Source: an uncultured Planctomycetales bacterium (lineage in GTDB: Bacteria; Omnitrophota; Gorgyraeia; Zapsychrales; JAHFFX01). Taken from it: a stretch of DNA of 64,000 nt. The stretch covers positions 83,659 through 147,658 of the forward strand of contig CAZTCI010000002.1 in assembly GCA_964612665.1 (NCBI GenBank), read 5' to 3'. The notes under the pieces are model-generated. The model was not told the origin of the DNA. It saw only the letters and a list, made by a program, of their open reading frames with translations, and made no database searches. Of the stretch, positions 4,721 through 43,028 are shown piece by piece. Each line of letters starts with the position of its first letter. The stretch's first letter is position 1. Made by a program: the position numbers and the translations under genes.

Positions 4721-4733
4721 TAATGGAGGAGAA

Positions 4734-5213
4734 ATGAAAAACAAAATTATAGGTTTAATGATTTTTATTTTTATTTCGATGACTTGCCGCGCTATGGCTG
4801 ATTGTGTCGGAACTATTCAATCGATTACACAAGATCCGGATCAAGGAGACATAGTATTTACGACTGAATATGCCTTCAACGGAAAAGTCGTAGATGCATC
4901 GGAAATTCACTATGACGAAACAAGTGGTAACGAAACGGACATAGCAGAAAAAGCTCATGCAGATATAAGAAATCATTGCAATGTCTTGATTCTTCAAATT
5001 CCAGAAAATCAGGCATTCATTGAACAGGCTAAACTCGACCGTAAGAAAGAATTGACAAACCCTTTGGTGTCAAAACTTCAGGTTCTGGTTGGTGATCAAT
5101 ATACCGTGACTCAAGGAACAGTTGTTTTTCAGGGCAAGTCAATCAATGTTAAAGACGATAAGGAAAACTCGGTATCGGATGCCGTCATTGTCGAGGACAT
5201 TAATTCGCCATGA
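4734..5213 (+). CDS. secreted hypothetical protein (Sec signal peptide)
   Basis: Start at MKNKIIGLMIFIFISMTCRAMA with AXA cleavage site; RBS ggagga upstream; stop overlaps next gene start (ATGA). Confidence 0.5.
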   Translation: MKNKIIGLMIFIFISMTCRAMADCVGTIQSITQDPDQGDIVFTTEYAFNGKVVDASEIHYDETSGNETDIAEKAHADIRNHCNVLILQIPENQAFIEQAKLDRKKELTNPLVSKLQVLVGDQYTVTQGTVVFQGKSINVKDDKENSVSDAVIVEDINSP

Positions 5214-6004
5214 AGAAATTTATTTTAGGATTGATGTTTTCTTTTTTCTGTTCGTTAGGGTGGGCGACTAACTATTGCACAGATTCAAACACAAAAGCTG
5301 CCTATAAGCTTGATGAGACTAGTGGGACCGTTACGGACTGCAGCTCTAACGCCAATAATAGCTCCTCTGTCACTAACGTCACACAGAATACAACGGGAAA
5401 ATGGGGAGTAGGAGTTTCATTTACAAATTCAAATCCGCAAAAGATTTTAATTCCTTCAAGTACATCACTCAACAACATAAATCCGATTACCGTTTGTGCT
5501 TGGATAAAAAGAAGCGGCGCTGGTGGGGCAACAGGAAACCTGGCGGATGACGGCACCCTTCTTAGTAAAAACTGGAGAAGCTGGGCTTTATCTTTAAACA
5601 CGACTTTGCAGGTTAGATGGTCGGTTCATTATTCTGGCGGAACTGCAGCCTGGACAACCACAAATGGGAGCATTGTGACCGGAACGTATACGCACGTCTG
5701 CGTTGTCCACAATAGGACCAATGGCTCGGCACCTAGTATTTATGTCAATGGAACGTTACAAAGCACAAATTCAAACTCAACAGATGCAACCATTGATGAT
5801 GATTCTGGTCAAGCGATATGCATGGGAGAGGCTTGCGATTTAAACAGTGACCGGTTAAATGCTTTTGTGGATGAAGTATTAATTTATGGCGGGGCTTTAA
5901 ATTCTACACAAGTAACCAATATAAAAAATTGCGGAATTGATGGTTCTCATTGTGCCAATGGTTTCCCAACTCCAGATTTGTGGAGGCATCCAAGATATGA
6001 ATAA
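5210..6004 (+). CDS. secreted LamG/concanavalin-A-like lectin domain protein
   Basis: Signal peptide MKKFILGLMFSFFCSLGWA; C-terminal motif FVDEVLIYGGALNSTQV typical of Laminin_G_3 domains. Confidence 0.55.
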   Translation: MKKFILGLMFSFFCSLGWATNYCTDSNTKAAYKLDETSGTVTDCSSNANNSSSVTNVTQNTTGKWGVGVSFTNSNPQKILIPSSTSLNNINPITVCAWIKRSGAGGATGNLADDGTLLSKNWRSWALSLNTTLQVRWSVHYSGGTAAWTTTNGSIVTGTYTHVCVVHNRTNGSAPSIYVNGTLQSTNSNSTDATIDDDSGQAICMGEACDLNSDRLNAFVDEVLIYGGALNSTQVTNIKNCGIDGSHCANGFPTPDLWRHPRYE

Positions 6005-8888
6005 AAAATTTCTGTCATTAATTATTTCTTTGGTGATTCTTTTGCTCCCAGCGCAATCTTGGGCGATGTGGTTGACGATCAAGAAGGGGACGACATCAAA
6101 GATTATCACGATTCCCATATATGACAGTTCTTCAACGACTGGCGGCATGTTAACCGGCTTAGTTTACAATTCGAGTAGTTTGACAGCTTATTACAATCGC
6201 GAAGGAGCTTCTGGTGCCGCAACTTCAATAAGTCTAGTTAATGCCACAAAGGGGACATGGACTTCTGGAGGATTTATCGCGGTTGATGGTACCAATATGC
6301 CAGGCTGGTATGAGTTGCACATACCTGATGCGGCTCTTGCGACAGGTGCAAATTCAGCCGTTGTTGAATTAAAGGGCGCTGCAAACATGGTTCCTGTAAA
6401 TATTATGATCCAACTGGTTGATTTTAATCCTGGTGAAGTCTCAACAGGGACTGGATCTAATCAGTTGGATGTTACCAGTGGACGTATTAAGGCAGATGTT
6501 GCATATTGGAACGCTTCTGCCGTAGCCACACCCGATACCGCCGGATATCCCAAGGTCACCCTTAAAGCTGGTAGTGGAACGGGTGAATTAAATCTATCCA
6601 GTGGGAACGTCACTGTAGGTACCAATAATGATAAATCCGGCTATTCATTATCGGGCACTTTAACCACTTTAGATTCCACCTTTGAGAGAGTTAACACAGC
6701 ACAAGCGGGAGCAGCTGGTTCAATTACTTTAGACGCCGGCGCTTCAGCAACCGATAGTCTTTATAACGGTAATTGGGTATGCATCATGAGCAGCACCGGT
6801 GCTGGGCAATGCCGTTTGATCACTGGTTACACAGGATCGACTAAGGTTGCAACGGTCACACCAAACTGGACGACCAATCCATCTTCAAGTTCAGTTTTTG
6901 CCATTGTTCCAGCAGCTTATGAAGCTGGAAATAATGGGAATGTGGCAGGATCAGTTAATAGCGTTACCTCTGGAGTGACTGTTTCGATCAATAACGATAA
7001 GACCGGCTACAGTCTTACTCAATCTTTCCCCACGAATTTTTCCAGTTTAGGTATCGATGGCAGCGGCAGAGTTGATTTGGGCAAATGGATAGGAAATGCA
7101 CCGAATGCGCTTATTTCCGGCCGTGTCGATTCAAATGCCCAGGTAGTTGGAGATAAAACTGGATACAGTTTGACGCAATCGTTTCCTACCAATTTTTCAT
7201 CCCTTTCAATTGATTCAAGCGGAAGAACCACACTGACACCAATAGAGTCATCCGTCTTGGCTAGTGGGACGGCGCAAGCTGGTGCTTCGGGAAGCATAAC
7301 TTTAGCTGCCGGAGCATCTGCTACGGATGATCTTTATAAGGGTTTGGTCGTAAAAATTTATGGAGGCACAGGAGCAGGCCAATCCAGAACGATTTCGGGA
7401 TATATCGGTTCGACCAAGGTCGCAACAGTATCTTGGAATTGGACAGCCACACCAGATAACACTTCGACATACTCGCTTATGTCTGAATCCAATCCATCAA
7501 TCAATAGCAGCTTACAGGTTTCAACAACGGCGAGTGATCCGTGGGGAACAGCTTTGCCAGGGGCATATGGAGCCGGAACAGCGGGGAATATTTTAGGAAA
7601 CAATTTGAATGCTACCGTTTCATCGAGATTAGCCACAAGCGGCGTGCCTACAAACTTCAGTGCATTATCAATTGATGGATCCGGCCGCGTGGATTTAGCT
7701 AAGTGGATTGGTTCTGCCCCGAATGCGTTGATTTCAGGACGGGTTGATTCTAACGCTCAGGTGGTAGGTGATAAAACGGGATATACCGCAGCAACGGTTC
7801 AGGATAAGACTGGCTATTCATTATCTGGAACACTCACCACTTTAGATTCCACCTTTGAGAGGGTTAACACGGCCCAGGCCGGTGCAGTCGGTTCGATTAC
7901 TTTAGACGCGGAGGCTTCAACGACCGATAACCTTTATAACGGAAACTGGGTCTGCATTATGAGCAGCACTGGTGCCGGGCAATGCCGTTTGATCACCGGC
8001 TATACAGGATCGACTAAGGTTGCAACGGTCACGCCAAACTGGACAACCAACCCATCTTCAAGTTCAGTTTTTGCCATTGTTCCAGCAGCTTATATTTCTG
8101 CAGTCAATGGATCCGTCACGGTGGGAACGAACAATGACAAGACCGGCTACAGTTTAACCCAAGCATTTCCGACCAATTTTAGTTCCATGGTAATTGACAG
8201 TAATGGTCGCATCGATTTGAGCAAGTGGCTTGGAAGTGCACCTAACGCGCTTATCTCTGGCCGCGTGGATGCCAATGCACAAGTGGTTGGAGACAAAACA
8301 GGATATACCGCATCAACCGTCAGCGATAAAACCGGTTATAGCTTGACGCAGGCGTTTCCAACTAATTTCAGTTCATTATCAATAGATGCGTCAGGTCGTA
8401 CTGATATCGGTAAATGGTTGGGAACAGCAGTTACAGCAACGACAACAGCCGGAAAACCGGACGTTGTTATTGTGACCAATAATGACAAGACAGGATACAC
8501 CGTTTCAACTGTTGGAGATAAGTCTGGGTATTCTTTAAGTTCTGCCGGTGTCGCTGCTATCTGGAATGAATTGCAAAGCGGCCACACCACATCTGGGACT
8601 TTCGGTAAATATCTTGATGCGCAGATTTCAACGATTACGGCACCTTCCGCGGCGACTATTGCACAATCGGTTTGGGATGAACCTATTTCTGGTCATTTAG
8701 CTTCCGGCTCAACTGGTCAGAAACTTAATACCGCAGGTAATGCTGGGGATCCCTGGGCTATTGATATTTCCAGCGGATACAGCGGTAAAGCTGGAGAAAC
8801 TATCCGCCGTATTGATCAAGATACGAATGGAAACAAAGATGGCAGCGATTATAACGGCATTGAAAAACTAATCAGGGCGCAGAGGTAA
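5998..8888 (+). CDS. large secreted Thr/Ser/Gly/Asn-rich beta-repeat protein (fibre/adhesin-like)
   Basis: Start MNKKFLSLIISLVILLLPAQSWA (signal peptide) overlapping upstream stop; repeated modules NNDKTGYSLTQ(S/A)FPTNFSS..ID.SGR..L.KW.G.APNALISGRVD.NAQVVGDKTGY; C-terminal VW(N/D)E..SGH..G(S/T).G motifs reminiscent of phage fibre proteins. Confidence 0.6.
6639..6920 (+). repeat. 282-bp direct repeat copy 1 inside the large repeat-protein gene
   Basis: Near-identical to 7812..8093 at DNA level (differences scattered, mostly synonymous); encodes GYSLSGTLTTLDSTFERVNTAQAGA..GSITLDA.AS.TD.LYNGNWVCIMSSTGAGQCRLITGYTGSTKVATVTPNWTTNPSSSSVFAIVPAAY. Confidence 0.8.
7812..8093 (+). repeat. 282-bp direct repeat copy 2 inside the large repeat-protein gene
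   Basis: See copy 1; the same 94-aa segment is duplicated 1173 bp downstream. Confidence 0.8.
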
Positions 8889-30856: not shown

Positions 30857-33526
30857 ATGGCTAATAAATATAATCGACCAGAGCCGGAGGCCTTTTTACC
30901 TATTGCAAAAGCTGAAGAATCAAGAAAAAAAGGGAAGTTAAAAATATTTCTTGGCTATTCGGCAGGTGTTGGAAAAACCTTTGCGATGTTAGAGGCCATC
31001 CGCCGCCGTCAAAAAGACGGGATGGATGCAGTTATTGCTTATGTGGAAACACACAAACGCAAAGAAACAGAAGCTCTGCTTGAAGGTATAGAAATCATAC
31101 CGCGCGGCGTTTCCTCTTATCGGGGGACAACCCTTGAGGAAATGGATTTGGACGCTGTACTAAGACGCCGACCGCAACTGGCTGCTGTCGATGAACTAGC
31201 CCACACCAATGCCCCAGATTCCCGCCATATAAAACGCTATCAAGATATTCAAGAACTCGTTGCAGCGGGTATCGATGTTTATACCACTTTGAACATTCAA
31301 CATTTGGAAAGTCTCAACGATGTGATCGCCAAGATTTCAGGCGTCAGAATGCGTGAAACCATTCCTGACCGAGTCTTGCAGGAGGCCGATGAGATCGAGG
31401 TCGTAGATATTCCAATCGGCGAACTTTTGCAGAGGTTAAAAGAAGGAAGAATTTATGTACCGGAACAAGCCCAACGCGCCTTGCAAAGTTTCTTTAATGA
31501 AGGTAATTTGACATCTTTGCGGGAGTTGACATTAAGACGCGCAGCCAAGAGCGTCGACGCTCAAATGCAAGGATATATTCAAACAAAGGCTATTGAAGGT
31601 CCTTGGCCTTCACGGGAAAGAATCTTGGTTTGCGTGAGTGCTTATCCGTCGAGTACCGAACTTGTGCGGGCTGCGAGTTTGCTGGCCACCGGCCTTGATG
31701 CTCAATGGTTTGCTGTTTATGTGGAGTCGCCTTTTAAAAGTAAGGTGTCCGATGTGGATCGCAATCAAATAACAAAGACATTGGAGTTGGCTCAAGAATT
31801 AGGCGCCCAGGTGGTTACCTTGACTGCAGACGATATTGCCCCGGAAATCATTGCTTATGCATTGCGTCACAATATCACCAAGATCATTATTGGTAAACCG
31901 CTCAAACATCAATGGCAAGGATTCTTTAAGAATAATCTTGTGGATGAAATCATTCAACATAGCGGAGACATCGATGTCCAGGTAATTAACCGGACCTTAG
32001 ATAAAAGAGATAAATCCGTCACCGCTTTTATTCGTCCGAAAAGTCCATGGTATTACTATTTAAACAGCGTCATTATCGTCGTAATAGCTACTTTAATCAG
32101 TTTTGCATTGAAACCTTTTTTTGCCGCTACTAATCTTGTTATGATTTATATTTTAGCGGTGGTTATATCAGCGTTTTGGTGGGGACGAGGGCCTTCCATC
32201 GTTGCAGCGGTGTTAGGAGTGGGTGTTTTTGATTTTGTTTTTGTGCCTCCATATTTTACTTTTGTTGTGTCAGATATAGAATATCTTTTAACATTTTTTG
32301 TGCTGTTTGTTGTCGGGATGGTTATTAGCTTTTTAACTGGTCAGACACGCCAGCAGACTGAAAATATGCGGCAAAGGGAAAGGCGAACCGCCGCTTTGTA
32401 CGGCTTGAGCCGTGAATTAGCCAAAGCCCTTAATCTCGATGAAATTATCAAAGCTTTTGTCAAACATGCTTCGCAGACATTCGATTGTTTTACGGCTGTT
32501 TTTCTAAAAGAAAAAAATGGCATCATGGAAAAATTTATCGAGGAGCATTTCCCTTTCAATGAACGGGAAAAGGCGGTAACAGAATGGGTATTTCAGAATA
32601 ATCAAGTTGCAGGGTGCAACACCGATACGTTACCGGCCGCTTCTTCCATTTACTTTCCTTTGAGTACCAGCGGAGGGATGTGGGGTGTCATTGGTATTAA
32701 TTTAAAAGACACCAATAATAAAATGACCATGGATGACAGGAATTTATTGGAATCGTTTGTGACACAATGTACTTTGGCTATTGAACGTGTTGCATTGGTT
32801 GAAGAGTCCCGCCAAATACAGCTTATGCGCGAAAAAGAAAATATGCAGTCGGCATTATTCGATTCGATCTCGCATGATTTAAAAACACCTCTGGTTTCGA
32901 TCAAGGGATCCTTAAGCAGTTTGCTTGAGGCGGGCAATCTGGATGAGCGAACAAAAAAAGGTCTGGTGGAAAATGCTTACGAAGAAACCAACCGTATGAA
33001 CCAACTGATCAGCAATTTATTAGATATGGCCCGTTTAGAAGCGGGCGGATTAAAATTATCGTTAAAACTTTCCGAGGTTAGAGATGTTGTTGGCAGCACT
33101 TTGAAACAATTTGAAGGATTATTGACCGGCCGAAAAGTTACCATTAATATTCCTGACGATTTGCCGCACATCCCCATAGATTTTTCGTTGATGTCAAAAG
33201 TGTTAGCCAATGTGATCGATAATGCCATTAAATATGCCCCCTTTAGCAATCTCCCCATAGACATCGAAGCCGTAAAGAACGATGGTTTCGTCGAAATCAG
33301 GGTATTGGATCGAGGCTTAGGTATTCCGGTTGATGATTTAGAGGCCATTTTCGATAAGTTTTATCGCGTCAAAAGACCAGAAAATTTTGAAGGGACGGGG
33401 CTAGGGCTTTCGATTTGTAAAAGGATCGTTGAGGCGCATAAAGGGCGCATATGGGCTGAAAATCGCCCTGACGGCGGATCGATCATAACAATTGCTCTGC
33501 CGGTAGAGATTGATAAAAATGGTTGA
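30857..33526 (+). CDS. kdpD: sensor histidine kinase KdpD
   Basis: N-terminal KdpD domain (GYSAGVGKT), Usp domain, 4 TM, GAF, HisKA (SHDLKTPL), HATPase (GTGLGLSI). Confidence 0.9.
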   Translation: MANKYNRPEPEAFLPIAKAEESRKKGKLKIFLGYSAGVGKTFAMLEAIRRRQKDGMDAVIAYVETHKRKETEALLEGIEIIPRGVSSYRGTTLEEMDLDAVLRRRPQLAAVDELAHTNAPDSRHIKRYQDIQELVAAGIDVYTTLNIQHLESLNDVIAKISGVRMRETIPDRVLQEADEIEVVDIPIGELLQRLKEGRIYVPEQAQRALQSFFNEGNLTSLRELTLRRAAKSVDAQMQGYIQTKAIEGPWPSRERILVCVSAYPSSTELVRAASLLATGLDAQWFAVYVESPFKSKVSDVDRNQITKTLELAQELGAQVVTLTADDIAPEIIAYALRHNITKIIIGKPLKHQWQGFFKNNLVDEIIQHSGDIDVQVINRTLDKRDKSVTAFIRPKSPWYYYLNSVIIVVIATLISFALKPFFAATNLVMIYILAVVISAFWWGRGPSIVAAVLGVGVFDFVFVPPYFTFVVSDIEYLLTFFVLFVVGMVISFLTGQTRQQTENMRQRERRTAALYGLSRELAKALNLDEIIKAFVKHASQTFDCFTAVFLKEKNGIMEKFIEEHFPFNEREKAVTEWVFQNNQVAGCNTDTLPAASSIYFPLSTSGGMWGVIGINLKDTNNKMTMDDRNLLESFVTQCTLAIERVALVEESRQIQLMREKENMQSALFDSISHDLKTPLVSIKGSLSSLLEAGNLDERTKKGLVENAYEETNRMNQLISNLLDMARLEAGGLKLSLKLSEVRDVVGSTLKQFEGLLTGRKVTINIPDDLPHIPIDFSLMSKVLANVIDNAIKYAPFSNLPIDIEAVKNDGFVEIRVLDRGLGIPVDDLEAIFDKFYRVKRPENFEGTGLGLSICKRIVEAHKGRIWAENRPDGGSIITIALPVEIDKNG

Positions 33527-34229
33527 AAACGGCTCTAATAATATACGTATACTTGTGGTCGATGATGAGAAAGCCATTCGACGGTTTCTTAAAATGTCGC
33601 TTACATCTCAAAATTATGAGGTGGAGGAGGCTAAAAGCGGCAAGGAAGCTGTGGAGGTGTTAAAGTCTTTCCGGCCGGATGCTATCCTTTTGGATTTGGG
33701 TTTGCCTGACATGGATGGTGTTCAGGTCACAAAAAAGATAAGGGAAATAACTCAAACGCCCATTGTGATTGTTTCTGTGCGAGATCAGGAGCAAGACAAA
33801 ATTGCCGCTTTGGATGCCGGAGCGGATGATTATTTGACTAAGCCATTTAGTGCGCCCGAACTTTTTGCCCGGCTGCGTGCTGTATTGCGTCGATTGGCTC
33901 GAGTCAAAGATGACCCCGTTTTTAAAATAGATAAGCTGTTAGTTGATTTGGGGCGGCGGCTAGTCAAAGTAGCAGACACCGAAATTCATCTAACGCCCAC
34001 CGAATATGACGTATTAAAAGTGCTGGTTCTTAATGCCGGACGGGTTATGACCCACCAACAGGTCATTAAACAAGTGTGGGCCAAAGATGTCAAAAATTAT
34101 GAAGGCACAGAGCATTTACTGCGCGTGACGATCAGTAATCTACGCACGAAATTAGAACCAGATCCTGCCAGGCCAACCTATATTCTCACCGAGTCCGGTG
34201 TAGGGTATCGGCTCCGTTTCGATTCCTAA
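33510..34229 (+). CDS. kdpE: response regulator KdpE (OmpR family)
   Basis: Receiver domain (VVDDE...D) plus winged-helix C-terminus; overlaps kdpD end. Confidence 0.9.
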   Translation: MIKMVENGSNNIRILVVDDEKAIRRFLKMSLTSQNYEVEEAKSGKEAVEVLKSFRPDAILLDLGLPDMDGVQVTKKIREITQTPIVIVSVRDQEQDKIAALDAGADDYLTKPFSAPELFARLRAVLRRLARVKDDPVFKIDKLLVDLGRRLVKVADTEIHLTPTEYDVLKVLVLNAGRVMTHQQVIKQVWAKDVKNYEGTEHLLRVTISNLRTKLEPDPARPTYILTESGVGYRLRFDS

Positions 34230-34381
34230 CTAATTACACTCCTTAGTGTTATAGCGATATATCCTAGATTAATCTTTATACTTTCTTGATAAAAATCCTT
34301 CCTTTTTTGACGCCCAATTGATTTGAATTCCCCTGGAAATACTGTACCCTTGGAGTAGAAGCTAAAAAGAGGAGGGAGTTC

Positions 34382-34474
34382 ATGGATTGGTTATACGGAG
34401 GAATCATTTTAATTTGTTTTGGGGCCAGCGTTTGGTTTATTAAAGTCTGCCAGGGCCTGGAGGATAAACAATGA
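34382..34474 (+). CDS. 30-aa hydrophobic peptide upstream of kdpF (possible second KdpF-like subunit or leader)
   Basis: MDWLYGGIILICFGASVWFIKVCQGLEDKQ; RBS gaggaggga upstream; stop overlaps kdpF ATG. Confidence 0.25.
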   Translation: MDWLYGGIILICFGASVWFIKVCQGLEDKQ

Positions 34475-34563
34475 ATCCAATTTATCTGGTTAGCGGGGTA
34501 ATTACTTTTGGACTCTTTATTTATTTGCTCGTTGTTCTCTTAAGAGGAGAGGAGCTTTTATGA
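34471..34563 (+). CDS. kdpF: KdpF small subunit
   Basis: [30 protein letters not shown], 30 aa single TM, stop overlaps kdpA ATG. Confidence 0.5.
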   Translation: MNPIYLVSGVITFGLFIYLLVVLLRGEELL

Positions 34564-36263
34564 TGATGGGATGGATGCAGCTTTTTTTATATTTGGTCGT
34601 TTTGATCGCCTTGGTGAAACCCTTAGGGATTTACATGGCTTATGTCTACGAAGGGAATGTGCCCGGACCCTTGCGCTGGTTGAAGGGTATTGAAAGGGGC
34701 ATTTATAGGTTTACTGGTTTGGACGAAAAGCAAGAAATGTCATGGGTAACATATGCCCTTGCCATGCTCGTGTTTAATATAGTTGGCATTGTGCTGCTGT
34801 ATGTTTTACAGCGAGTACAGGTGTGGCTGCCTTTAAATCCTCAAGGGATGGGGGCAGTCAGCAGTGATTCTTCGTTTAATACCGCCGTTTCATTTGCGAC
34901 CAATACAAACTGGCAAGGCTATGGCGGAGAAAGCACCATGAGTTATTTGACGCAGATGGTTGGGCTTGCAGTGCAGAATTTCGTTTCAGCGGCCACTGGG
35001 ATGGCGGTTTTGATTGCCATTATTAGAGGGTTTGTTCAGAAACAAGGGCAAACCTTGGGAAATTTTTGGGTTGATTTGGTTCGTTCGACGCTTTATATCC
35101 TTTTGCCTTTGTCGATTATCCTGGCGGTGGTTTTGGTTTCTCAAGGGGTCCCGCAAACTTTCAGGCCATCGGCTGCAGCACATTTCGTAAACGATCAAAC
35201 TATTGCGTTGGGACCCGTGGCTTCTCAAATTGCCATTAAGCAATTGGGAACCAATGGCGGAGGTTATTTTAATGCGAATTCGGCGCATCCGTTTGAGAAT
35301 CCAACGCCTTTGTCTAATTTTCTCGAAATGCTGGCTATCCTTTTAATTCCGGCCGCGCTTTGTTATACCTTTGGTGTCATGGTCAAGGACCGCCGTCAGG
35401 GGTGGGCATTGCTGGCTGCAATGGTTGCCATCTTTGTTGTCTTTTTAGGTATGGCATATTTTTACGAGTCGCAGCCAAATCCTTTGATCAGTGACAATGT
35501 GAATCACTCGATCACAGGCGGCAATATGGAAGGCAAGGAAGCGAGGTTTAGCACTGCTGAATCGGTTCTATGGGCAACGGCCACCACAGCGGCTTCCAAC
35601 GGGTCAGTCAATAATATGCATGATTCATTGATGCCTTTAAGTGGAATGGTTGCTTTGATCATGATTTTGTTTGGGGAGGTTATTTTTGGCGGTGTTGGTT
35701 CAGGCTTATATGGAATGCTGGCGTTTGTCATTGTTGCCGTATTCGTAGCCGGTTTAATGGTGGGGAGGACACCGGAATATTTAGGAAAGAAAATCGAAAG
35801 TTTCGAGATGAAGATGGCTATGTTGGCTTTATTGATCGTTCCTTTTCTAGTTTTATGTTTAACGGCTTTGGGTTTAATGACAACGTGGGGCCGTGCCGGT
35901 ATTGCCAATGCGGGACCGCATGGTTTTTCCGAGGTTCTCTATGCCTTTGCATCCGCAGCCAATAATAACGGCAGTGCTTTTGCCGGTTTAAGTGCGAACA
36001 CACCTTTCTACAATACTGCACTCGGGCTTGCGATGTTTTTGGGGAGGTATTGGATTATTATTCCGATGTTGGCTTTTGCTGGTTCTATGGTGCGTAAACA
36101 AAAGATTCAAGAGAGCGCCGGCACGCTTTCGACGCATACGCCATTATTTATCGGCTGGTTGATTGCGATTGTGGTGTTGGTTGGCGTTTTAAATTATTTG
36201 CCTGCACTTGTCCTAGGGCCGGTGATTGAACATCTGATGTTGAATCAGGGAATGATGTTTTAA
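34560..36263 (+). CDS. kdpA: potassium-transporting ATPase subunit KdpA
   Basis: 567 aa polytopic, K+ selectivity-filter-like GGG motifs (TNGGGYF). Confidence 0.9.
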
Positions 36264-36271
36264 AGGGGAGT

Positions 36272-38326
36272 ATGACTATGTCTAAAATTTGGAAACGCGC
36301 TTTAATTGATGCTTTTAAGAAACTGGATCCACGCTGTCAGGTGCGGAATCCGGTTATGTTTGTGGTTTATATTTACAGCATTCTGATAACGTGGCTGTTT
36401 GTTCAGGCTATCTTGGGCAAGGGAGAGGCATCACCGGTATTTATTGGTCAGGTGGCGGCCTGGTTGTGGTTTACCATTCTTTTTGCCAATTTTTCAGAAG
36501 CATTGGCGGAGGGACGTGGCAAGGCACAGGCGGATGCTTTGCGGAGGACCCGGCAGGAAACCAAGGCTAAGAAATTGCATCAGCCCAAATACGGTTCTGT
36601 TTATGATCTTACTCTCTCGACGGATTTAAGATCGGGAGATGTGGTGCTTGTCGAAAAAGGTGATATTGTTCCGGCTGACGGGGAGGTCATGGAGGGGATT
36701 GCTTATATCGATGAAAGCGCGATCACGGGTGAAAGTGCTCCGGTTATTAGAGAATCAGGCGGCGACCGTAGTGCTGTAACAGGCGGCACCCGGGTGATTT
36801 CGGATTGGGTAGTAATCAAGGTAACCGCCGGCCCGGGCGAAGGATTTTTAGATCGTATGATCAGTTTGGTCGAAGGTACCAAAAGACAGAAAACACCGAA
36901 TGAAATTGCGCTGCACATTTTGCTTTCCGGTTTAACAATTGTTTTCTTACTGGTCTGCGCGACACTTTTACCTTTTTCTTTATATAGCGTGCAGGTGATG
37001 GGTAAAGGTTCAGCGATAACGATCACAGCTTTGGTTTCGCTTTTAGTTTGCCTTATTCCGACGACTATTGGAGGGTTGGCCAGTGCCATTGGTATTGCTG
37101 GGATGGACCGTTTATTAAGGCGCAATGTCATTGCTATGTCCGGCCGCGCGGTGGAGGCCGCCGGTGACGTGAACGTTTTATTGCTGGATAAAACCGGCAC
37201 GATCACTTTGGGCAATCGTGAGGCCGTTGAATTCATTACATTACGCAATTTCAATACGGATAAGGTGGCCGAATTAGCGCAATTGGCTTCATTGGCCGAT
37301 GAAACGCCCGAAGGACGAAGCATCGTTGTTTTAGCAAAGGGAAAGTATGGGTTACGCAGCCGTTTTCAAGAATCACCGGCAGAGGCCAAGATGACCTTTA
37401 TTCCATTTACAGCGCAATCGCGCATGAGCGGTGTGGATACCGGGGATGCCAAGATTCGCAAAGGTGCTCACGATGCGATTGTCAGTTATGTTAAATCCTT
37501 GGGAGGTGTCATTCCTACGGATTTGAAAGATATTGTGGAACGGATTTCAAAGACGGGCGGGACGCCTTTGGTTATTTGTCGTAATGATGAAATTGCCGGT
37601 GTCATTCATTTGAAAGACGTTGTCAAAGGCGGGATCAAAGAGCGTTTTATGCATTTGCGGAAGATGGGCATTAAAACGGTGATGATTACCGGTGACAATT
37701 CTTTGACAGCTGCAGCCATCGCTGCAGAGGCAGGTGTGGATGATTTCTTGGCACAGGCGACACCTGAAGATAAGTTACGGCTTATTCGTGAGTATCAAGC
37801 AGCCGGCGGGCTTGTGGCTATGGCGGGGGATGGGACTAATGATGCGCCGGCATTGGCCCAGGCAGATGTGGCCGTGGCCATGAACACCGGTACACAGCCG
37901 GCCCGGGAAGCGGCTAACATGATTGATCTGGACAGCAACCCCACCAAATTAATTGAAGTCGTGGAAACCGGCAAACAATTATTAATGACGCGCGGTTCGT
38001 TGACGACATTTAGCATTGCCAATGATATTGCCAAGTATTTTGCGATTATTCCAGCGGCTTTTGCGCTCACATACCCTCAATTGGGTATTCTTAATATTAT
38101 GCATTTGGCAACCCCGCAAAGTGCCATTCTGTCCGCGGTGATTTTCAATGCATTGATTATCCTGGCGCTGATTCCGATTGCTTTAAGAGGAGTGCCTTAT
38201 AGGCCGGTTGGGGCAGCACAGATCTTCCGGGATAATTTATTGATTTATGGGGTAGGTGGTCTTGTTTCACCGTTTATCGGGATTAAATTGATCGATATGA
38301 TTTTGGTAGCATTAAAAATTGTTTGA
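36272..38326 (+). CDS. kdpB: potassium-transporting P-type ATPase subunit KdpB
   Basis: DKTGTIT phosphorylation motif, [14 protein letters not shown]. Confidence 0.9.
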
Positions 38327-38335
38327 GAGGTCTTT

Positions 38336-38974
38336 ATGTTAAAACATCTATTTGTATCTATAAAAATGCTGGCGATTATGACTGTTTTGACAGGGATAAT
38401 TTATCCTTTGCTCATTACAGGGTTCACCCAGGCAGCATTTCATCATCAGGCTAACGGAAGTCTGATTCTCAACAACGGGAAAATTCAGGGGTCTGAATTA
38501 ATCGGTCAATGCTGGGATGATCCGAAATATTTTTTTGGCCGGCCATCTGCAACGTCGCCAGCATGTAACGGGTCTGGGTCGTCGGGTTCCAATCAGGGTC
38601 CGACCAATAAAGCATTGGTTGATACTATTAAATCCAGGGCAGATGCGTTACAGGCCTTGGATCCCGACAATCATGGTCCTATTCCAGCAGATCTGGTTAT
38701 GGCATCTGGTAGCGGCTTGGACCCGCAAATTTCTATTGCCGCAGCAAAGTATCAGGTTGAACGGATCGCACGTGTGAGGAATTTACCAAAGGATGAATTG
38801 AGCATGCTTGTCGATCAATTCACTCAAAGCAGGGATCTTAAATTTATGGGCCAGCCGCGCGTGAATGTCCTTGAGTTGAACATTGTCCTTGATCAATACA
38901 AAGCCGGCGACATTGCAAAAATAAAACCAGTGGAAGTAAAACGAGGATTAATCACTAAGGCGACGATTTTTTAG
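38336..38974 (+). CDS. kdpC: potassium-transporting ATPase subunit KdpC
   Basis: 212 aa, N-terminal TM, GSGLDPQIS motif. Confidence 0.85.
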   Translation: MLKHLFVSIKMLAIMTVLTGIIYPLLITGFTQAAFHHQANGSLILNNGKIQGSELIGQCWDDPKYFFGRPSATSPACNGSGSSGSNQGPTNKALVDTIKSRADALQALDPDNHGPIPADLVMASGSGLDPQISIAAAKYQVERIARVRNLPKDELSMLVDQFTQSRDLKFMGQPRVNVLELNIVLDQYKAGDIAKIKPVEVKRGLITKATIF

Positions 38975-38976
38975 CA

Positions 38977-39231
38977 ATGATTGAAAGAATAATTTATAAA
39001 AAAGGCCGGCAGGTTGTTGAGGTCCGTTCCCGTGGCGGCAAACTTTTGTTTATTAAAAGTAAAGACGGTTATGAAATCAAATGCCGCAAGACCCAAGAGA
39101 TTTGCATCGTTTCTTACGACCATATGTTTCTGGATTCCCTAAAAAGTTTTTTGCCTTTCACGCCTCACGCCGAAGTTCTCCGTAAATCCCAAGAAATCCG
39201 CCGGTCCCTAATTTCTTCCCTTTCCGCATAA
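38977..39231 (+). CDS. hypothetical small basic protein
   Basis: 84 aa, 2 nt after kdpC; no recognisable domain. Confidence 0.25.
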   Translation: MIERIIYKKGRQVVEVRSRGGKLLFIKSKDGYEIKCRKTQEICIVSYDHMFLDSLKSFLPFTPHAEVLRKSQEIRRSLISSLSA

Positions 39232-39314
39232 AGCAAGTTTTAATTTGAGTTATAATGTAAAAAATATAGAATAAAGAATATATTTTAGAAATTTTCTTAG
39301 ATGTGGAGACCTAA

Positions 39315-40370
39315 GTGGAATCAAAAAAATCTATAGTCGCTGTGGATCTATTTTGTGGTGTCGGGGGTTTAACCCATGGATTGATTAAAGCAGGAATTCC
39401 GGTCAAAGCTGGCATCGACATTGATGGCACATGTAAATATGCATACGAAAGTAATAACCGCGCAGTTTTCTTTCAAAAAGATATAAAAATACTCGACGGT
39501 AAAGAATTAAAAATGCTCTATTCTGGAAGCGGTATCAAAATTCTGGTAGGGTGTGCGCCTTGCCAACCATTCTCCAAGCATACTCATAAGAACAGGCAAC
39601 GTAATGAAGATAGCGAATGGGGATTGCTATATCATTTTTCTAAATTAATTAGAGAATCGGACCCTACGATTGTTTCGATGGAGAATGTCCCACAAATTGT
39701 CAAACATAAAGTCTTTAATGATTTTGTTGAAGGGCTTAAGGAAATAGGCTATCACGTTTCTTGGAGTTCTGTTTTTTGTCCGGATTACGGTATTCCTCAA
39801 AACAGAACAAGGCTGGTCCTGCTGGCATCTAAATTAGGTAAAATCAATCTTTTGAATCCAACGCATAAACCCACCAATTATAAAACGGTTGCCGATGCGA
39901 TTGGCAATTTTGAAAGTATCGAAGCTGGAAAATCTTCAAACAGAGACTACCTGCATAGAGCAGCTACTTTAGCGCCGATTAATCTTAAGAGGATAAAGAA
40001 ATCAAAGCCGGGTGGATCGTGGAAAGATTGGAGTAAGGATTTACGTGCTCCTTGTCATCAAAAAGAATCTGGAGAAACGTACAGTTCTGTTTATGCCCGC
40101 ATGACATGGGACAATCCTGCGCCAACAATCACGACACAATTTTTTAGTTTTGGGACTGGTCGCTTTGGCCATCCCGACCAGAATAGAGCCATATCGCTTC
40201 GCGAAGGATCAGTACTTCAAACATTTCCACGAAAATATAAGTTCTTGGATAAACGGACTCCGATGTCGTTTAAAAAGCTTGGAGTCTACATTGGTAATGC
40301 AGTGCCCGTACGTTTGGGTCAAATAATTGGAAAAAGTATCATTAAGCACATCGAAAGTCATAATGTCTAA
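39315..40370 (+). CDS. DNA (cytosine-5)-methyltransferase
   Basis: Motif I FCGVGG, motif IV GCAPCQPFS, motif VI ENV, motif VIII QNRTR; GTG start; AT-rich upstream region. Confidence 0.85.
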   Translation: MESKKSIVAVDLFCGVGGLTHGLIKAGIPVKAGIDIDGTCKYAYESNNRAVFFQKDIKILDGKELKMLYSGSGIKILVGCAPCQPFSKHTHKNRQRNEDSEWGLLYHFSKLIRESDPTIVSMENVPQIVKHKVFNDFVEGLKEIGYHVSWSSVFCPDYGIPQNRTRLVLLASKLGKINLLNPTHKPTNYKTVADAIGNFESIEAGKSSNRDYLHRAATLAPINLKRIKKSKPGGSWKDWSKDLRAPCHQKESGETYSSVYARMTWDNPAPTITTQFFSFGTGRFGHPDQNRAISLREGSVLQTFPRKYKFLDKRTPMSFKKLGVYIGNAVPVRLGQIIGKSIIKHIESHNV

Positions 40371-42036
40371 TCAATCCGATCAGAAGTTTTCTTTTGAAAT
40401 TTCCTTGAGTGTTTTAAACCATTTAGGAAGAAACTTATATCGGAGTTTTGCAACCGTTCTCGGAGAAGCTATTTCTAATTCATGGGATGCTGATGCCAAG
40501 AATGTTTATATTTATATCGATAAGAAAAAGAATAGTTTTTTTATAAAAGATGATGGAATAGGCATGACAGCCGACGATTTTCAGAATAAGTTTCTGAAAA
40601 TTGGGTACTCAAAAAGGCAGCTAGGTAAAAAAGATTCCCCCAAAGGCAGGCCCTACATAGGTAGGAAAGGGATAGGTAAACTGGCTCTCTTGTCGTGCGC
40701 AGAGAAAATTACTGTAATATCGAAGACGAGCGGTGGAGAATATGTCGGAGGTGTTATCGATAATTCCGGCTTAGATAAAGCTATAACCGATGATTTGACG
40801 CCCAAACAATACGCTTTGGGTCAACCAAATCTAAAAGTTTTTGGTCGACATACAAAAAGTCATAATAAAGGTACCATCATTTACTTCGAGGGAATCAAGG
40901 ATGGAATAAAAAATAGTCTAAGTCTTTTAAAGAAAATCGTAGCTTTATATTTTCGGTTTTCTCTTTTGGATCGATCTTTCAATATTTTTATCGAAGGTGA
41001 AAAAATCACCCATGATTGTTTAGACGATCTAGGGGTAAAAACCGAATTTTTATGGAAGATAAATAAAATCCAAGATCCTTATATTCAGAAGCTTCAAGAT
41101 GAGTTCACCCTTAAAGAAAAAAGACAGCTTAATCTAAAAGGAAATATTAAAGGCTTTATTGCTTCTGTCGAAAAACCAAGAGATCTTAAAATAATTACCA
41201 CCGATGAAAGGGTTGGTGTCGACCTTTTTGTGAATGGCAGATTGCGGGAAAGGGATATTTTAAAACATATTCCCACCGCCAGGGTGGTCGAAAGCTATTT
41301 ATACGGCCAAATTCATTTTGATGAATTGGATGATAAAGAAGATCGATTTACCAGTAGTCGGGAAGGCGTGGTCGCCGATGATCCGAAATATAAGAATTTT
41401 CTAGATCAGTTAAGAAGTAAGATCATTGGAGTTATTTTAGAGGATTGGGATAAATGGAGAAGAAAACATAGAGAAGATGGGGATTCCGAAAACCAAGTCA
41501 TTCCTCCAAAAGAGAGAAAGGCCGAAGAGCTATTTAACGAAGTCTCAAAAGATTACTCTCTTCCAAAGGACTCGGCTAATAACAAAAAAGTGGATGGGTG
41601 GGTCAATGCTTTGGGTGAGGATGCCAGATATAATTTTTCGTCTTATGCGGAATGTTTTATCTCCGAGAATTTAATCCGAAGATTTATTCAAGACAATAAG
41701 ATTCCTCTTTCCAAAGAAGCAAAAGAGGAGATCAATAAAATGCAGAAAAAAGAGGCGGAGAGTAAAGGTAAAGGGAATATCAGTATAGAAATCAGAAAAA
41801 TAAAAACAGGTTTAAGTTATTTGTCTATGGATAATCTTGCTGCGTTGGTCGATAAGAAAGACCCTCTTAAGGAGGCCTGTCTTTTGAGAGATGCAAATAA
41901 ATATAAACCAATTAGGGATGCTCTTGCACACACTGCTCTTTTGACAGATGAAGCGAAGCGAAAATTAACTACAGTCTATGACAATATAAAAGGCAGAGTA
42001 ACGACGCTACTGTCTGGTAAGAATAAGAAGCTATGA
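40363..42036 (+). CDS. GHKL-superfamily (MORC/MutL-like, HATPase_c_3) ATPase of unknown effector function, co-operonic with the C5-MTase
   Basis: Bergerat-fold motifs: E35..N39..D42 (GEAISNSWDA), DDGIGM (63-68), GRKGIGK (100-106); start MSNQ overlaps MTase stop by 8 nt; C-terminal ~300 aa uncharacterised. Confidence 0.65.
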   Translation: MSNQSDQKFSFEISLSVLNHLGRNLYRSFATVLGEAISNSWDADAKNVYIYIDKKKNSFFIKDDGIGMTADDFQNKFLKIGYSKRQLGKKDSPKGRPYIGRKGIGKLALLSCAEKITVISKTSGGEYVGGVIDNSGLDKAITDDLTPKQYALGQPNLKVFGRHTKSHNKGTIIYFEGIKDGIKNSLSLLKKIVALYFRFSLLDRSFNIFIEGEKITHDCLDDLGVKTEFLWKINKIQDPYIQKLQDEFTLKEKRQLNLKGNIKGFIASVEKPRDLKIITTDERVGVDLFVNGRLRERDILKHIPTARVVESYLYGQIHFDELDDKEDRFTSSREGVVADDPKYKNFLDQLRSKIIGVILEDWDKWRRKHREDGDSENQVIPPKERKAEELFNEVSKDYSLPKDSANNKKVDGWVNALGEDARYNFSSYAECFISENLIRRFIQDNKIPLSKEAKEEINKMQKKEAESKGKGNISIEIRKIKTGLSYLSMDNLAALVDKKDPLKEACLLRDANKYKPIRDALAHTALLTDEAKRKLTTVYDNIKGRVTTLLSGKNKKL

Positions 42037-42041
42037 GGTCT

Positions 42042-42254
42042 TTATAGTAATTTAGACATTTCGATCTTTAAAGCTTTAGCAATTTTCTGAAGATTTATAA
42101 TTCCAATATTTTTTTCCCCGCGTTCAATTTGTCCCACGTAAGCACGATGTAAATCTGCCTCAAATGCCAGGGCTTCCTGGGTAATCCCTTGTTTCTCTCG
42201 GTACAACCGAATCCGCTTACCTACTTCTTTATTGATATCAGCCAAAGCAAACAC
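42042..42254 (-). CDS. XRE-family HTH transcriptional regulator (controller-like)
   Basis: 70 aa; ITQEALAFEADLHRAYVGQIERGEKN HTH_3 motif; convergent with the GHKL gene, 5-nt gap. Confidence 0.75.
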   Translation of the reverse strand: MFALADINKEVGKRIRLYREKQGITQEALAFEADLHRAYVGQIERGEKNIGIINLQKIAKALKIEMSKLL

Positions 42255-42301
42255 CCTCCATAAGTGCGTAAATATCTTATTGGCGTGCTGCTTATTGGTC
42301 G

Positions 42302-42315
42302 ACTACCTATAGGTA
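42302..42315. promoter_or_regulatory. perfect 14-bp palindrome CTACCTATAGGTAG in the XRE gene upstream region (putative operator)
   Basis: Sits between the XRE gene start (42254) and the divergent small ORF (42372). Confidence 0.45.
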
Positions 42316-42371
42316 GCATTTAATTATTTGTTGTGGTAAGCTGAAATAGCTTAAATAGAGGAAGGGTGGAT

Positions 42372-42547: not shown

Positions 42548-42919
42548 TTAAAGTTCCATAAGTCGATCAATGGTTTCTTGGCGCGATTTGGGAGAATTTA
42601 GAGCGGCTATTTTTAGAAGGGTTTTACCGGTGAAACGTTTTAGCATTTTAGAATCTTGGCAATCACGCATTTTGGCAAGAAAATTTGGCGGTAAATTATC
42701 GGCGATTTTCATTAATTGGGATATGCGGGGCCGTGAGACCTTAAAATGACGGCTGGCATGGAGGTAAGATCTAGTGGGGTCTTCAGCTAAGAATTGTTGA
42801 ACTTTAAGGGATTGTTTGATAATATTTCTGTAATTAGGTTCAGGAGGCGGTTGATCCACAGGCAGCGGCTCCCAGAAATTGATTCGAATACTTCGCCCCC
42901 GACGTTTATAAATTTTCAC
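42548..42919 (-). CDS. small ParB/KorB-like HTH DNA-binding protein
   Basis: VSRPRISQLMKIADNLPPNFLAKM resembles the ParB HTH box (SRSHVSNLLRLL...). Confidence 0.35.
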   Translation of the reverse strand: MKIYKRRGRSIRINFWEPLPVDQPPPEPNYRNIIKQSLKVQQFLAEDPTRSYLHASRHFKVSRPRISQLMKIADNLPPNFLAKMRDCQDSKMLKRFTGKTLLKIAALNSPKSRQETIDRLMEL

Positions 42920-42975: not shown

Positions 42976-43028
42976 TTTACTAAAACCCGTTGCCTGCAAA
43001 CAGAATTAGCAACGGGTTTTATTTTTTA
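42976..43028. terminator. hairpin terminator (AAAACCCGTTGC...GCAACGGGTTTT + T-tract)
   Basis: Perfect 12-bp stem, followed by attttttaaaa on + and preceded by an A-tract; downstream of the minus-strand gene 43043..43906. Confidence 0.5.

Follow-up and report, generated by a model that had tools for sequence, protein, structure and literature searches.

Type II enzymes built on a GHKL ATPase have been described before. R.HgiDII is one of them, and the HgiDII/BbrUII enzymes cleave DNA at GTCGAC (PMC2441816). GHKL-containing "restriction enzymes" have appeared in REBASE-based surveys since 2008, with their C-termini unassigned. The architecture C5-methyltransferase (C5-MTase), GHKL-HEPN protein and Vsr was described computationally for R.NmeAIP (Orlowski & Bujnicki 2008, PMC2441816), and a PrrC-like role was suggested for fusions of paraMORC to Ymh HEPN domains that lie in restriction-modification (R-M) neighbourhoods (Anantharaman et al. 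2013, PMC3710099). Characterised HEPN domains with an Rx4H motif are metal-independent RNases (PMC3710099), and HEPN domains of the Swt1/Abi2 clade occur fused to a DUF499 AAA+ ATPase in R-M or BREX-like operons (PMC3710099). The anti-phage activity of another GHKL protein, VcSduA (paraMORC3, Shedu type I-D), needs both its ATPase glutamate and its nuclease (PMC12137116). The general kind of module that we analyse here was already predicted by earlier comparative genomics, and the preliminary description of this locus overstated its novelty, since the architecture had been described computationally in 2008 and 2013. In the papers searched we found no experimental work on pairs of a GHKL-HEPN protein and a C5-MTase. 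We know of no HEPN-bearing GHKL "restriction enzyme" that has been studied so far.

We examined a window of 64,000 nucleotides, by which we mean the whole stretch of DNA that was analysed. In the ORF and Pfam annotation of this window, the pair of interest follows kdpABC and is itself followed by an HTH gene, two small ORFs, a TupA ATP-grasp gene, an acyltransferase, an rRNA-type MTase and a response regulator. Its features are the following:

39245..39272, + strand: promoter-like site TTGAGT-16-TAGAAT upstream of the MTase gene (consensus scan, weak match)
39315..40370, + strand: C5 cytosine DNA methyltransferase, 351 aa (Pfam PF00145 DNA_methylase, E 2e-59, full length)
40363..40370, + strand: 8-nt overlap ATGTCTAA, with the GHKL-HEPN start codon within the end of the MTase gene (predicted translational coupling)
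40363..42036, + strand: GHKL-HEPN protein, 557 aa (HATPase_c_3 match)
40363..40947, + strand: GHKL (Bergerat) ATPase domain, residues ~1-195, with motifs I, II and III and a conserved N-terminal segment (residues 9-29)
40948..41367, + strand: S5-fold transducer-like domain, residues ~196-335
41368..41574, + strand: helical linker, residues ~336-404 (predicted secondary structure; invariant W362, D363, W365, R366)
41575..42036, + strand: HEPN-fold domain, residues ~405-557, then the stop codon; predicted nuclease (RNase-type) effector
41665..41679, + strand: E435-N-L-I-R439, HEPN Ex3[KR] motif (as defined in PMC3710099)
41914..41931, + strand: R518-D-A-L-A-H523, HEPN Rx4H motif with a polar residue after R (as defined in PMC3710099)
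42042..42254, - strand: XRE-family HTH protein, 70 aa (HTH_3 3.7e-16; PADLOC Control_protein 1.8e-21)
42276-42283 and 42291-42298: two CTTATTGG copies preceding the palindrome
42303..42316, no strand: perfect palindrome CTACCTATAGGTAG, 49-62 nt upstream of the HTH start

The MTase gene starts with GTG, with a GGAG box 6-7 nt upstream, and its product carries the motifs FCGVGG, PCQ, ENV and QNRTR. It exceeds the cut-off of TIGR00675 (dcm), and its top PADLOC model is DrmMII (PDLC02651, 4.8e-95, full length). From these matches we take it to be the predicted modification (self-marking) component of the module. The second gene begins at an ATG at 40363, inside ...CATAATGTCTAA, and the two genes have 8 nt in common; its ORF extends back to a TTG at 40327, and the homologues begin at the position of the ATG. 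The preliminary description had proposed a C5-MTase at 39315..40370 with the motifs named above, an 8-nt overlap with the gene of a 557-aa protein, and no canonical restriction endonuclease gene nearby. Coordinates, motifs and the Pfam match all agree with the first proposal, the overlap is seen in the sequence, and the ORF and Pfam survey of the neighbourhood found no recognisable DNA endonuclease near the pair.

The intact Bergerat fold that had also been claimed for the 557-aa protein (E..N..D, DDGIGM, GRKGIGK) stands as well. HATPase_c_3 (PF13589) matches residues 28-125 with E 8e-23 and 81.4 bits, the cut-off being 25; motif I (E35/N39/D42), motif II (D63-D-G65-x-G67) and motif III (G100-R-K-G103-I-G105-K) are all intact, and their residues do not vary among 27 close homologues and hardly vary among 41 diverged ones. 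Residues 1-335 form a GHKL+S5 unit whose best structural matches are MORC3, SMCHD1 and MutL, the S5-fold domain directly following the GHKL domain as in a MORC/paraMORC module. The N-terminus is hence supported as a predicted MORC/MutL-like GHKL ATPase. At the sequence level the resemblance to MORC, SMCHD1 and MutL is marginal (mutl TIGR00585 gives 24.5 bits against a cut-off of 180) and, unlike them, the 557-aa protein has no CW, coiled-coil, hinge or MutL C-terminal endonuclease region. It likewise falls short of the MzaB family (20.9 bits against a cut-off of 850; E 8e-4 in PADLOC, over the GHKL core only). A PDB sequence search with the full protein matched only Hsp90/HtpG N-domains, at E 1e-4. 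The reading as a sensor histidine kinase was rejected, and so was that as an Hsp90 paralogue, the best folds being MORC/MutL with S5, no DHp being found and the linkage to the MTase being conserved.

The closest curated family is that of BbrUII/HgiDII (NF050001), whose model positions 1-372 match residues 9-377 with 300.2 bits and E 3.2e-89. The curated cut-off of this family, 550 bits, is not reached, and positions 373-659 of the model, which make up its C-terminal domain, are left unmatched. The two proteins thus resemble each other in a homologous N-terminal GHKL+S5 module and in lying directly after a C5-MTase of one family, but in ours a HEPN domain stands in place of the 287 C-terminal model positions. 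In the defence-HMM search the PADLOC REase_II models match the ATPase N-terminus at 1e-39, while the DrmMII model matches the MTase.

The C-terminal ~300 aa had been described as carrying no recognisable motif. The structure check of this part found an S5 transducer and a HEPN fold, and the region can now be read as S5 transducer, helical linker and HEPN with Rx4H. As the full-length AF2 model was poor at the C-terminus (pLDDT 36-55), a domain-only model built on a more diverse alignment was used instead. In this model the C-terminal part is an alpha-helical up-down bundle resembling solved HEPN domains. E435, N436 and R439 are kept in all 41 representatives (homologues clustered at <=50% identity), as are R518 and H523; D or N stands at position 519, and 38 of the 41 have T524. 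On the strength of fold and motifs, residues ~405-557 are a modelled HEPN fold with an intact Rx4H site and a predicted nuclease. Neither Foldseek of the C-terminal model against the PDB nor the C-terminal profile against PDB sequences gave a significant match. No curated HEPN model was matched above threshold, the best being HEPN_Swt1 (PF18731, cut-off 27.5), which gives 20.4 bits (E 6.6e-4) with one member and 15.7 bits with the family consensus. We detected no PD-(D/E)xK, HNH, GIY-YIG, PLD or half-pipe nuclease fold in the 557-aa protein, and no recognisable DNA-reading or methyl-sensing domain. Among 1.84e9 representatives the C-terminal domain was found in no other architecture, only in the GHKL-HEPN one and in fragments of it.

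The putative R.NmeAIP and paraMORC-Ymh enzymes share with our family the order C5-MTase, GHKL ATPase with a C-terminal HEPN, then Vsr. A Neisseria gonorrhoeae locus of this kind (L093) has HATPase_c_3, Hypoth_Ymh (at 2.9e-25) and Vsr. The identity between this type and the 557-aa protein is 29% over residues 3-390. The HEPN domains, in contrast, have no detectable sequence kinship, the affinity of ours being a weak one to HEPN_Swt1: Hypoth_Ymh (PF09509) matches none of 29 C-termini at E<=10, and hhalign of the C-terminus against a Neisseria Ymh alignment shows no relation, although this is a weak test because the search for Ymh homologues gave only 3 sequences and the template alignment was shallow (4 sequences).

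The other known systems resemble the pair in part. VcSduA, predicted to be a dimeric clamp, also joins a GHKL ATPase to a C-terminal nuclease effector, the likeness being that of a shared GHKL fold, but the fold of its effector is that of a DUF4263 PD-(D/E)xK DNase, and an MTase partner is lacking. The PrrC and RloC anticodon nucleases combine an NTPase with a C-terminal HEPN RNase (R and H catalytic) in methylation-based restriction loci and are, by analogy, the functional counterparts that we would name for GHKL-HEPN; their NTPase, however, is of the ABC/Rad50 type, and they are partnered by a type I R-M complex rather than by a solitary C5-MTase. The Swt1/Abi2-DUF499 proteins likewise place an ATPase and a Swt1-like HEPN in a methylation-based defence operon (the Swt1 affinity of ours is below threshold), but the ATPase is of another class and the systems have many genes, including helicases. 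The window MTase has a full-length match in class 2 DISARM, and GHKL-HEPN homologues follow drmABC elsewhere; in the window, drmA, drmB (DUF1998) and drmC (PLD) are absent from the neighbourhood, where kdpC and the HTH gene are the neighbours instead. Finally, the pair resembles type II R-M systems in its adjacent cognate MTase but has no endonuclease of a known DNA-nuclease fold.

The GHKL-HEPN family has more than 5000 sequences in at least 573 species representatives of bacteria and archaea, at 55-81% identity; it has a wide lateral spread and occurs on a plasmid. Across 80 loci that span many phyla, an orthologue of the MTase is encoded in 76. In 74 loci its gene directly precedes the GHKL-HEPN gene on the same strand, at 44-64% identity. 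The projected gene ends overlap in 63 of 71 loci and overlap or lie within +-30 nt of each other in 68 of the 71. The protein is therefore no stand-alone paralogue without MTase linkage, and the earlier proposal of a MORC/MutL-like ATPase coupled to a C5-MTase, as a candidate non-canonical restriction or defence module, gains from this linkage (76/80) together with the homology to a restriction enzyme family. Vsr is found in 39 of the 80 loci. Unbiased clustering of the 80 loci gave no recurrent neighbour other than the MTase and Vsr, so that a separate nuclease is unavailable; in about 90% of loci, the window included, the MTase with or without Vsr is the sole partner. In four loci the gene has no adjacent MTase and comes after DISARM drmABC (drmA-drmB-drmC directly precede homologues in L008, L020 and L029), and hence the MTase is not always needed nearby. 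In L004/L012 and in L010 a second GHKL protein adjoins the GHKL-HEPN gene, and both have the same MTase in common; HgiDII-type and GHKL-HEPN-type proteins are separate genes within one locus in L004/L012, where the split gene of L004 is a true NF050001 member, its C-terminal piece matching positions 275-554. In 72 of 75 pairs the GHKL-HEPN protein shows stronger conservation than the MTase that goes with it, which is atypical for a sequence-specific restriction enzyme. The conservation of the TRD-like region of the MTase equals that of its catalytic motifs.

The analysis shows the domain composition, the intact catalytic motifs, the homology to a restriction enzyme family and the conserved operon. 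As to function, we put at about even chances that the pair is an R-M-like defence or addiction module in which the MTase marks self and the GHKL-HEPN protein is the 'restriction' arm. The C5-MTase would mark host DNA at one target sequence. The co-translated GHKL-HEPN protein, predicted to consist of a GHKL+S5 ATPase clamp, a helical linker and a HEPN nuclease domain, would sense unmethylated target DNA, either alone or in a complex with the MTase as specificity subunit; elsewhere the module would often comprise three genes, with Vsr. ATP binding may then bring about dimerisation of the GHKL domains, as in MutL, MORC and GyrB, which would let two HEPN domains meet and form a composite Rx4H active site. 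This site would cut nucleic acid, RNA being the likeliest substrate because the characterised HEPN domains cut RNA, and the cell would arrest its growth or undergo abortive infection instead of restricting DNA in the classical way.

The more specific form of this explanation, in which 5mC is read on DNA and execution takes place on RNA, either host RNAs or nascent transcripts of the invader, we hold only tentatively. A MORC-like ATP clamp would close on unmethylated DNA and assemble the composite HEPN site, resulting in methylation-gated abortive infection or in restriction at the transcript level. The MTase and the GHKL+S5 unit would then be a conserved sensor chassis with swapped effectors (HgiDII-type DNase, Ymh-HEPN, Swt1-like HEPN and others), and this would account both for one MTase family partnering all effector types and for the ATPase protein being conserved above the MTase.

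That the protein is instead a DNA-cleaving, ATP-dependent type II-like restriction enzyme, its HEPN being a DNA nuclease or a DNA-binding or dimerisation domain, appears unlikely to us, although it is the alternative with the most in its favour. Its N-terminal 372 residues are homologous to the GTCGAC-cleaving BbrUII/HgiDII and PADLOC calls them REase_II, the operon is a classical M-R(-V) one with overlapping genes, and the MTases of HgiDII-type and GHKL-HEPN-type partners are one family with a conserved TRD-like region. Yet the likeness to HgiDII is confined to the ATPase+S5 module, a C-terminus of HgiDII type being absent and the signatures of PD-(D/E)xK, HNH, GIY-YIG and PLD nucleases not being detected; the characterised Rx4H HEPN domains are metal-independent RNases (PMC3710099), and conservation above that of the MTase is unlike typical restriction enzymes.

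Site counts in the window gave no conclusion on the specificity of the MTase, for GTCGAC or for CCWGG. GTCGAC occurs 8 times against 7.0 expected, and 3 of the 8 sites fall in the module, a clustering which is due to the codons of the conserved V286-D287 and to small numbers; CCWGG is over-represented and not avoided. By analogy with HgiDII/BbrUII, which cut GTCGAC, a DNA substrate would be favoured, and this counts against the RNA reading.

A guard of the PrrC/RloC kind, whose HEPN would be silenced by the MTase or by an unlinked restriction complex and freed upon phage counter-defence, is improbable. The counter-defence factor that attacks the partner might, for example, mimic DNA, degrade SAM or inhibit the MTase. 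Anantharaman et al. proposed such a PrrC-like role for paraMORC-Ymh HEPN fusions in R-M neighbourhoods (PMC3710099), and a second-line effector would fit both the loci where a second GHKL protein shares the MTase (L004/L012, L010) and the four loci after DISARM drmABC, where it would back a primary system. However, about 90% of loci, the window among them, offer the gene no partner beyond the MTase and, in some, Vsr; such loci contain no restriction activity that could be guarded, and a lone MTase provides no defence that would merit a guard.

We give little credence to purely selfish epigenetic addiction, in which loss of the module would dilute methylation and the remaining GHKL-HEPN protein would kill the cell, with no antiviral benefit. 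The tight gene coupling, the lateral spread with its plasmid occurrence and an effector of HEPN toxin type all agree with it, but it is compatible with defence, most R-M systems doing both, and the molecular mechanism that it implies does not differ from that of the best explanation. Least credible is the repair accessory put forward earlier, a MutL analogue aiding Vsr at T:G mismatches from 5mC deamination at MTase sites: the occurrence of Vsr after the gene in roughly half of the loci strengthens it somewhat, but Vsr is missing in the other half and in the window, where the MTase is present, the invariant HEPN active site is left unexplained, many ordinary C5 R-M systems come with Vsr for the plain reason that 5mC deaminates, and gene mobility and defence-island contexts point to a role in conflict.

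The window alone adds one more copy of a common mobile module, but the GHKL-HEPN family is among the most widespread of the GHKL-containing "restriction enzymes", and it offers an easy experimental entry point because only two genes are involved. If the HEPN domain is the effector, a DNA methylation mark would gate RNA-directed suicide or arrest, linking R-M to abortive infection, and the family would provide a bacterial model for MORC-type ATPases coupling DNA state to output. If the protein cuts DNA instead, it would be the first DNA restriction enzyme with a HEPN fold, so that either substrate outcome is informative. In current pipelines GHKL-HEPN proteins receive no label beyond "ATP-binding protein" or generic type II restriction enzyme.

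Two earlier proposals concerned the surroundings. The block had been called an AT-rich acquired island. Its GC content is indeed lower (0.34-0.42, against 0.44-0.51 for kdp and a window mean of about 0.43), but the drop is modest and the low-GC stretch continues to about 46.2 kb; the window contains no tRNA gene that could mark an integration site, and a search for flanking direct repeats gave nothing convincing. This lends weak support to an acquired island. Promoter-like sites in the consensus scan of the region do not exceed the number expected by chance.

The XRE-HTH protein had been taken for an R-M controller. The ORF is real, and its Control_protein match agrees with such a role. Its convergent orientation to the GHKL-HEPN gene speaks against it; conserved linkage and a shared operator do not follow either, as the gene recurs in only 2-3 of the 80 loci, at a distance, and the palindrome occurs just once in the window even when up to 3 mismatches are allowed, with no copy at the MTase promoter. 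The HTH gene is thus probably a neighbour and not part of the module, and the palindrome, from its position, is a possible operator of the HTH protein's own gene.

Judged by its sequence, the window MTase is an unambiguous C5 cytosine methyltransferase: it matches Pfam DNA_methylase over its full length (2e-59) and stands above the cut-off of TIGR00675. The 8 nucleotides at the 3' end of its gene, ATGTCTAA, hold the ATG of the 557-aa ORF, in agreement with the overlapping layout of the preliminary description:

39315..40370, + strand: C5 cytosine methyltransferase, 351 aa, GTG start, GGAG box 6-7 nt upstream
40363..42036, + strand: 557-aa ORF, the GHKL-HEPN gene

The second ORF is formally open from a TTG at 40327; its homologues start at the position of the ATG. 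The module is preceded by kdpABC and followed by an HTH gene of the XRE family, two small ORFs, a TupA-like ATP-grasp gene, an acyltransferase, an rRNA-type methyltransferase and a response regulator. As had been claimed, no classical endonuclease gene was seen near the pair among the ORFs and Pfam matches of the window neighbourhood. The module adjoins the 3' side of what appears to be a kdpD-kdpE-kdpA-kdpB-kdpC cluster (30857-38974), in which the two ORFs preceding kdpA (889 aa and 239 aa) are the putative kdpD-kdpE part. An 84-aa ORF (38977-39231, + strand), gene-called in public assemblies and without family match, begins 3 nt past kdpC.

The preliminary description had recognised no motif in the last ~300 residues of the 557-aa protein. 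We can now divide the whole protein as follows:

residues 1-195: GHKL
residues 196-335: S5 transducer
residues 336-404: helical linker
residues 405-557: HEPN (predicted)

The N-terminal module is a GHKL domain followed by an S5 transducer. It is an ATPase module of the MORC/MutL type with its motifs intact: HATPase_c_3 is found at 8.4e-23 (Pfam), and Bergerat motifs I-III are invariant in the homologue alignments. NF050001, the NCBIfam model of the BbrUII/HgiDII family of restriction enzymes, matches residues 9-377 (3.2e-89), but only with its positions 1-372 of 659 and with 300 bits, under the cut-off of 550; two PADLOC REase_II models give the same partial N-terminal pattern. Because the NF050001 match is restricted in this way and falls below the cut-off, we concluded that the N-terminal two-thirds of the protein are common with a real type II enzyme family while the C-terminus is different.

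This C-terminus was poorly modelled in the full-length structure run. Residues 338-557 were predicted again alone, using an alignment of 29 diverse C-termini (27-49% identity), and gave an all-helical model (pLDDT 90.7, pTM 0.78) for which Foldseek returned no significant match in the PDB. A set of 41 representatives, obtained by clustering at <=50% identity, has no invariant C-terminal residues besides Y428, E435, N436, R439, R518 and H523. These residues make up E-x3-R and R-[D/N]-x3-H motifs, the pair of signatures ascribed to catalytically active HEPN domains by Anantharaman et al. (PMC3710099). When the 29 C-termini and the family consensus were scanned, the most recurrent Pfam match was HEPN_Swt1 (best 6.6e-4, every match being below the gathering score), the consensus aligning to positions 8-107 of the 115 of this model. 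It is well supported by model and motifs, but not proven, that residues 405-557 are a HEPN fold with intact catalytic motifs. Residues 370-557 were also compared with 1.84 billion cluster representatives: all 199 matches have the ~555-aa architecture or are fragments of it, and the domain was found in no other architecture.

Sequence comparison describes the GHKL-HEPN family as very large and unusually conserved. A sequence search gave more than 5000 matches, with full-length relatives at 68-81% identity in Actinomycetota, Planctomycetota, Omnitrophota, Bacteroidota and Ignavibacteria, and at least 573 carriers turned up when each species was represented by a single genome, including many CPR lineages and archaea (Woesearchaeota, Thaumarchaeota, Thermoplasmata, Iainarchaeota). 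A conjugative Paracoccus plasmid bears the pair, its GHKL-HEPN protein being labelled merely "ATP-binding protein" by PGAP. The module is laterally mobile and occurs in defence-island contexts. Unbiased clustering of all neighbouring ORFs in 80 fetched loci yielded two recurrent partners only, the C5-MTase and Vsr; no other nuclease recurs in the conserved module. An orthologous C5-MTase is present in 76 of the 80 loci (same strand upstream in 74), and Vsr in 39 (same strand, directly downstream in 30). The MTase stop is projected to overlap the GHKL start in 63/71 loci and to lie within 30 nt of it in 68/71. The coupling to one MTase family looks obligatory. The core claim of the preliminary description, that a MORC/MutL-like GHKL ATPase and a C5-MTase form a candidate restriction-like module, is supported both by this linkage and by the NF050001 and REase_II matches.

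The family is new, unnamed and very widespread, and its kind was predicted computationally between 2008 and 2013. In R.HgiDII an N-terminal GHKL domain was described with an unassigned C-terminus, and four further GHKL-REase subfamilies were noted, among which R.NmeAIP ends in "Hypoth_Ymh" (Orlowski & Bujnicki 2008, PMC2441816). The paraMORC families were defined and tied to cytosine methylases and Vsr (Iyer et al. 2008); Ymh was later recognised as a HEPN domain, and paraMORC-Ymh fusions in R-M neighbourhoods were proposed to be PrrC/RloC-like (Anantharaman et al. 2013, PMC3710099). The architecture is therefore already known, since the Neisseria example that we examined bears it (a split HATPase_c_3 gene, Hypoth_Ymh at 2.9e-25, Vsr). 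Over residues 3-390, this GHKL-Ymh protein and that of the window are 29% identical. The R.NmeAIP-type locus of N. gonorrhoeae (L093, 2610-5575) is decayed, the MTase and GHKL-Ymh genes each being fragmented and Vsr intact. No relation of the window family's HEPN to Ymh was detectable by the Pfam scan of the 29 C-termini or by hhalign against a shallow alignment of 4 Neisseria Ymh sequences, nor was any curated model found to span the whole GHKL-HEPN protein. A GHKL-nuclease fusion, VcSduA (paraMORC3 / Shedu I-D), was shown to be anti-phage and needs its ATPase and nuclease residues (PMC12137116); our literature search turned up no experiments with GHKL-HEPN/C5-MTase pairs.

The few loci that lack an adjacent MTase carry the GHKL-HEPN gene immediately behind the DISARM core genes drmA-drmB-drmC (PADLOC E down to 0):

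L008/L009, 6001-7674: GHKL-HEPN gene behind drmABC
L020, 3658-5367: GHKL-HEPN gene behind drmABC
L029, 7974-9656: GHKL-HEPN gene behind drmABC

This adjacency and the best PADLOC model of the window MTase, which is DrmMII, suggest a link of the module with class 2 DISARM. Elsewhere one MTase apparently serves two paralogous GHKL effectors: the homologous locus L004 (= L012), at 2386-7680, has in order an MTase, a frameshifted true BbrUII/HgiDII-family gene (pieces of 237+286+70 aa, whose summed score exceeds the family cut-off), Vsr and an intact GHKL-HEPN gene. Another locus, L010 (3011-8378), has an MTase followed by a 628-aa GHKL protein whose C-terminus is of a further type, then GHKL-HEPN and a 227-aa Cys-rich ORF. 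The latter is also found 3' of the GHKL-HEPN gene in L029, and the C-terminus of the 628-aa protein is TIR-like by eye (RILICHTKEDKDLADIIYNLL...), without Pfam match.

The TRD-like region of the MTase is conserved as much as the catalytic motifs. Lying between motifs VIII and IX (window MTase 39315-40367 aligned), it reads …GGxWxDW…CHxxxSGxxYxSVYxRMxWDxPSPTITTQ…GNGRFGHPEQxRAISLREGA. It is common to MTases whose partners are an HgiDII-type gene (L004), a 644-aa GHKL protein (L094, Listeria) or GHKL-HEPN (window, L006, L010 and the Paracoccus plasmid L092). A single MTase family seems to serve many effector types.

To the following reading as a whole we would give an even chance. The MTase would protect self DNA; unmethylated target DNA, read either by GHKL-HEPN acting alone or jointly with the MTase in an MTase:GHKL complex, would trigger ATP-dependent dimerisation of GHKL; this would put two HEPN domains side by side into an active composite site, like other HEPN nucleases; and the likely substrate would be RNA, with arrest or abortive infection as the outcome. 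The hallmark of HEPN cleavage is 2',3'-cyclic phosphate ends. If true, such a methylation-gated RNase would make the family of high interest. The analogy with HgiDII speaks for an ATP-dependent restriction enzyme that cleaves DNA, which we consider unlikely. A PrrC-like guard set free by anti-restriction factors is less probable again, a purely selfish addiction module seems very improbable, and a MutL-like helper of Vsr repair slightly more so. Difficulties for the mechanism are that GHKL-HEPN shows no DNA-reader domain, that the DISARM-linked copies have no neighbouring MTase, and that of 75 pairs compared, 72 have a GHKL-HEPN better conserved than its own MTase (62.9% versus 53.3% mean identity to the window), the reverse of what ordinary R-M pairs show.

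The HTH gene (42042..42254, - strand) had been likened to the controller genes of R-M systems, and its protein does match R-M controller models (PADLOC). Despite this match we leave it out of the system, because its orientation is convergent to that of the GHKL-HEPN gene and homologous loci do not conserve it beside the module. Upstream of it we noted:

42276-42283 and 42291-42298: two copies of CTTATTGG
42298-42303: GTCGAC site
42303-42316: perfect 14-bp palindrome CTACCTATAGGTAG, unique in the window

The stretch 42276-42316 is a likely operator for autoregulation by the HTH protein.

The idea of an acquired island is weakly supported. The 40-46 kb part of the window is modestly AT-richer (0.376-0.384 GC against about 0.43 window-wide), as modules generally are relative to their own flanks in homologous loci, and kdpC is followed by wholly unrelated genes in the two closest available host relatives (KdpB 82-83% identity; closest named, Ca. 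Omnitrophica). Both facts fit acquisition, but the window showed neither integration scars nor tRNAs nor flanking repeats. A 123-aa ORF (42548-42919, - strand) with an HTH-like stretch, SRPRISQLMKIA, gene-called in public assemblies and without family match, is possibly a mobile-element remnant. Between it and the ATP-grasp gene stands a strong terminator-like hairpin (42982-43027: AAAACCCGTTGC ... GCAACGGGTTTT, then TATTTTTT), which was missed by the scan because of its 15-nt loop and which may delimit the inserted block on its right side. In the window, GTCGAC, the SalI site and also that of the related HgiDII/BbrUII systems, occurs as expected (8 versus 7), and CCWGG is over-represented, with 100 sites versus 73 +- 8.7 expected, a count reached by 1 of 100 shuffles.
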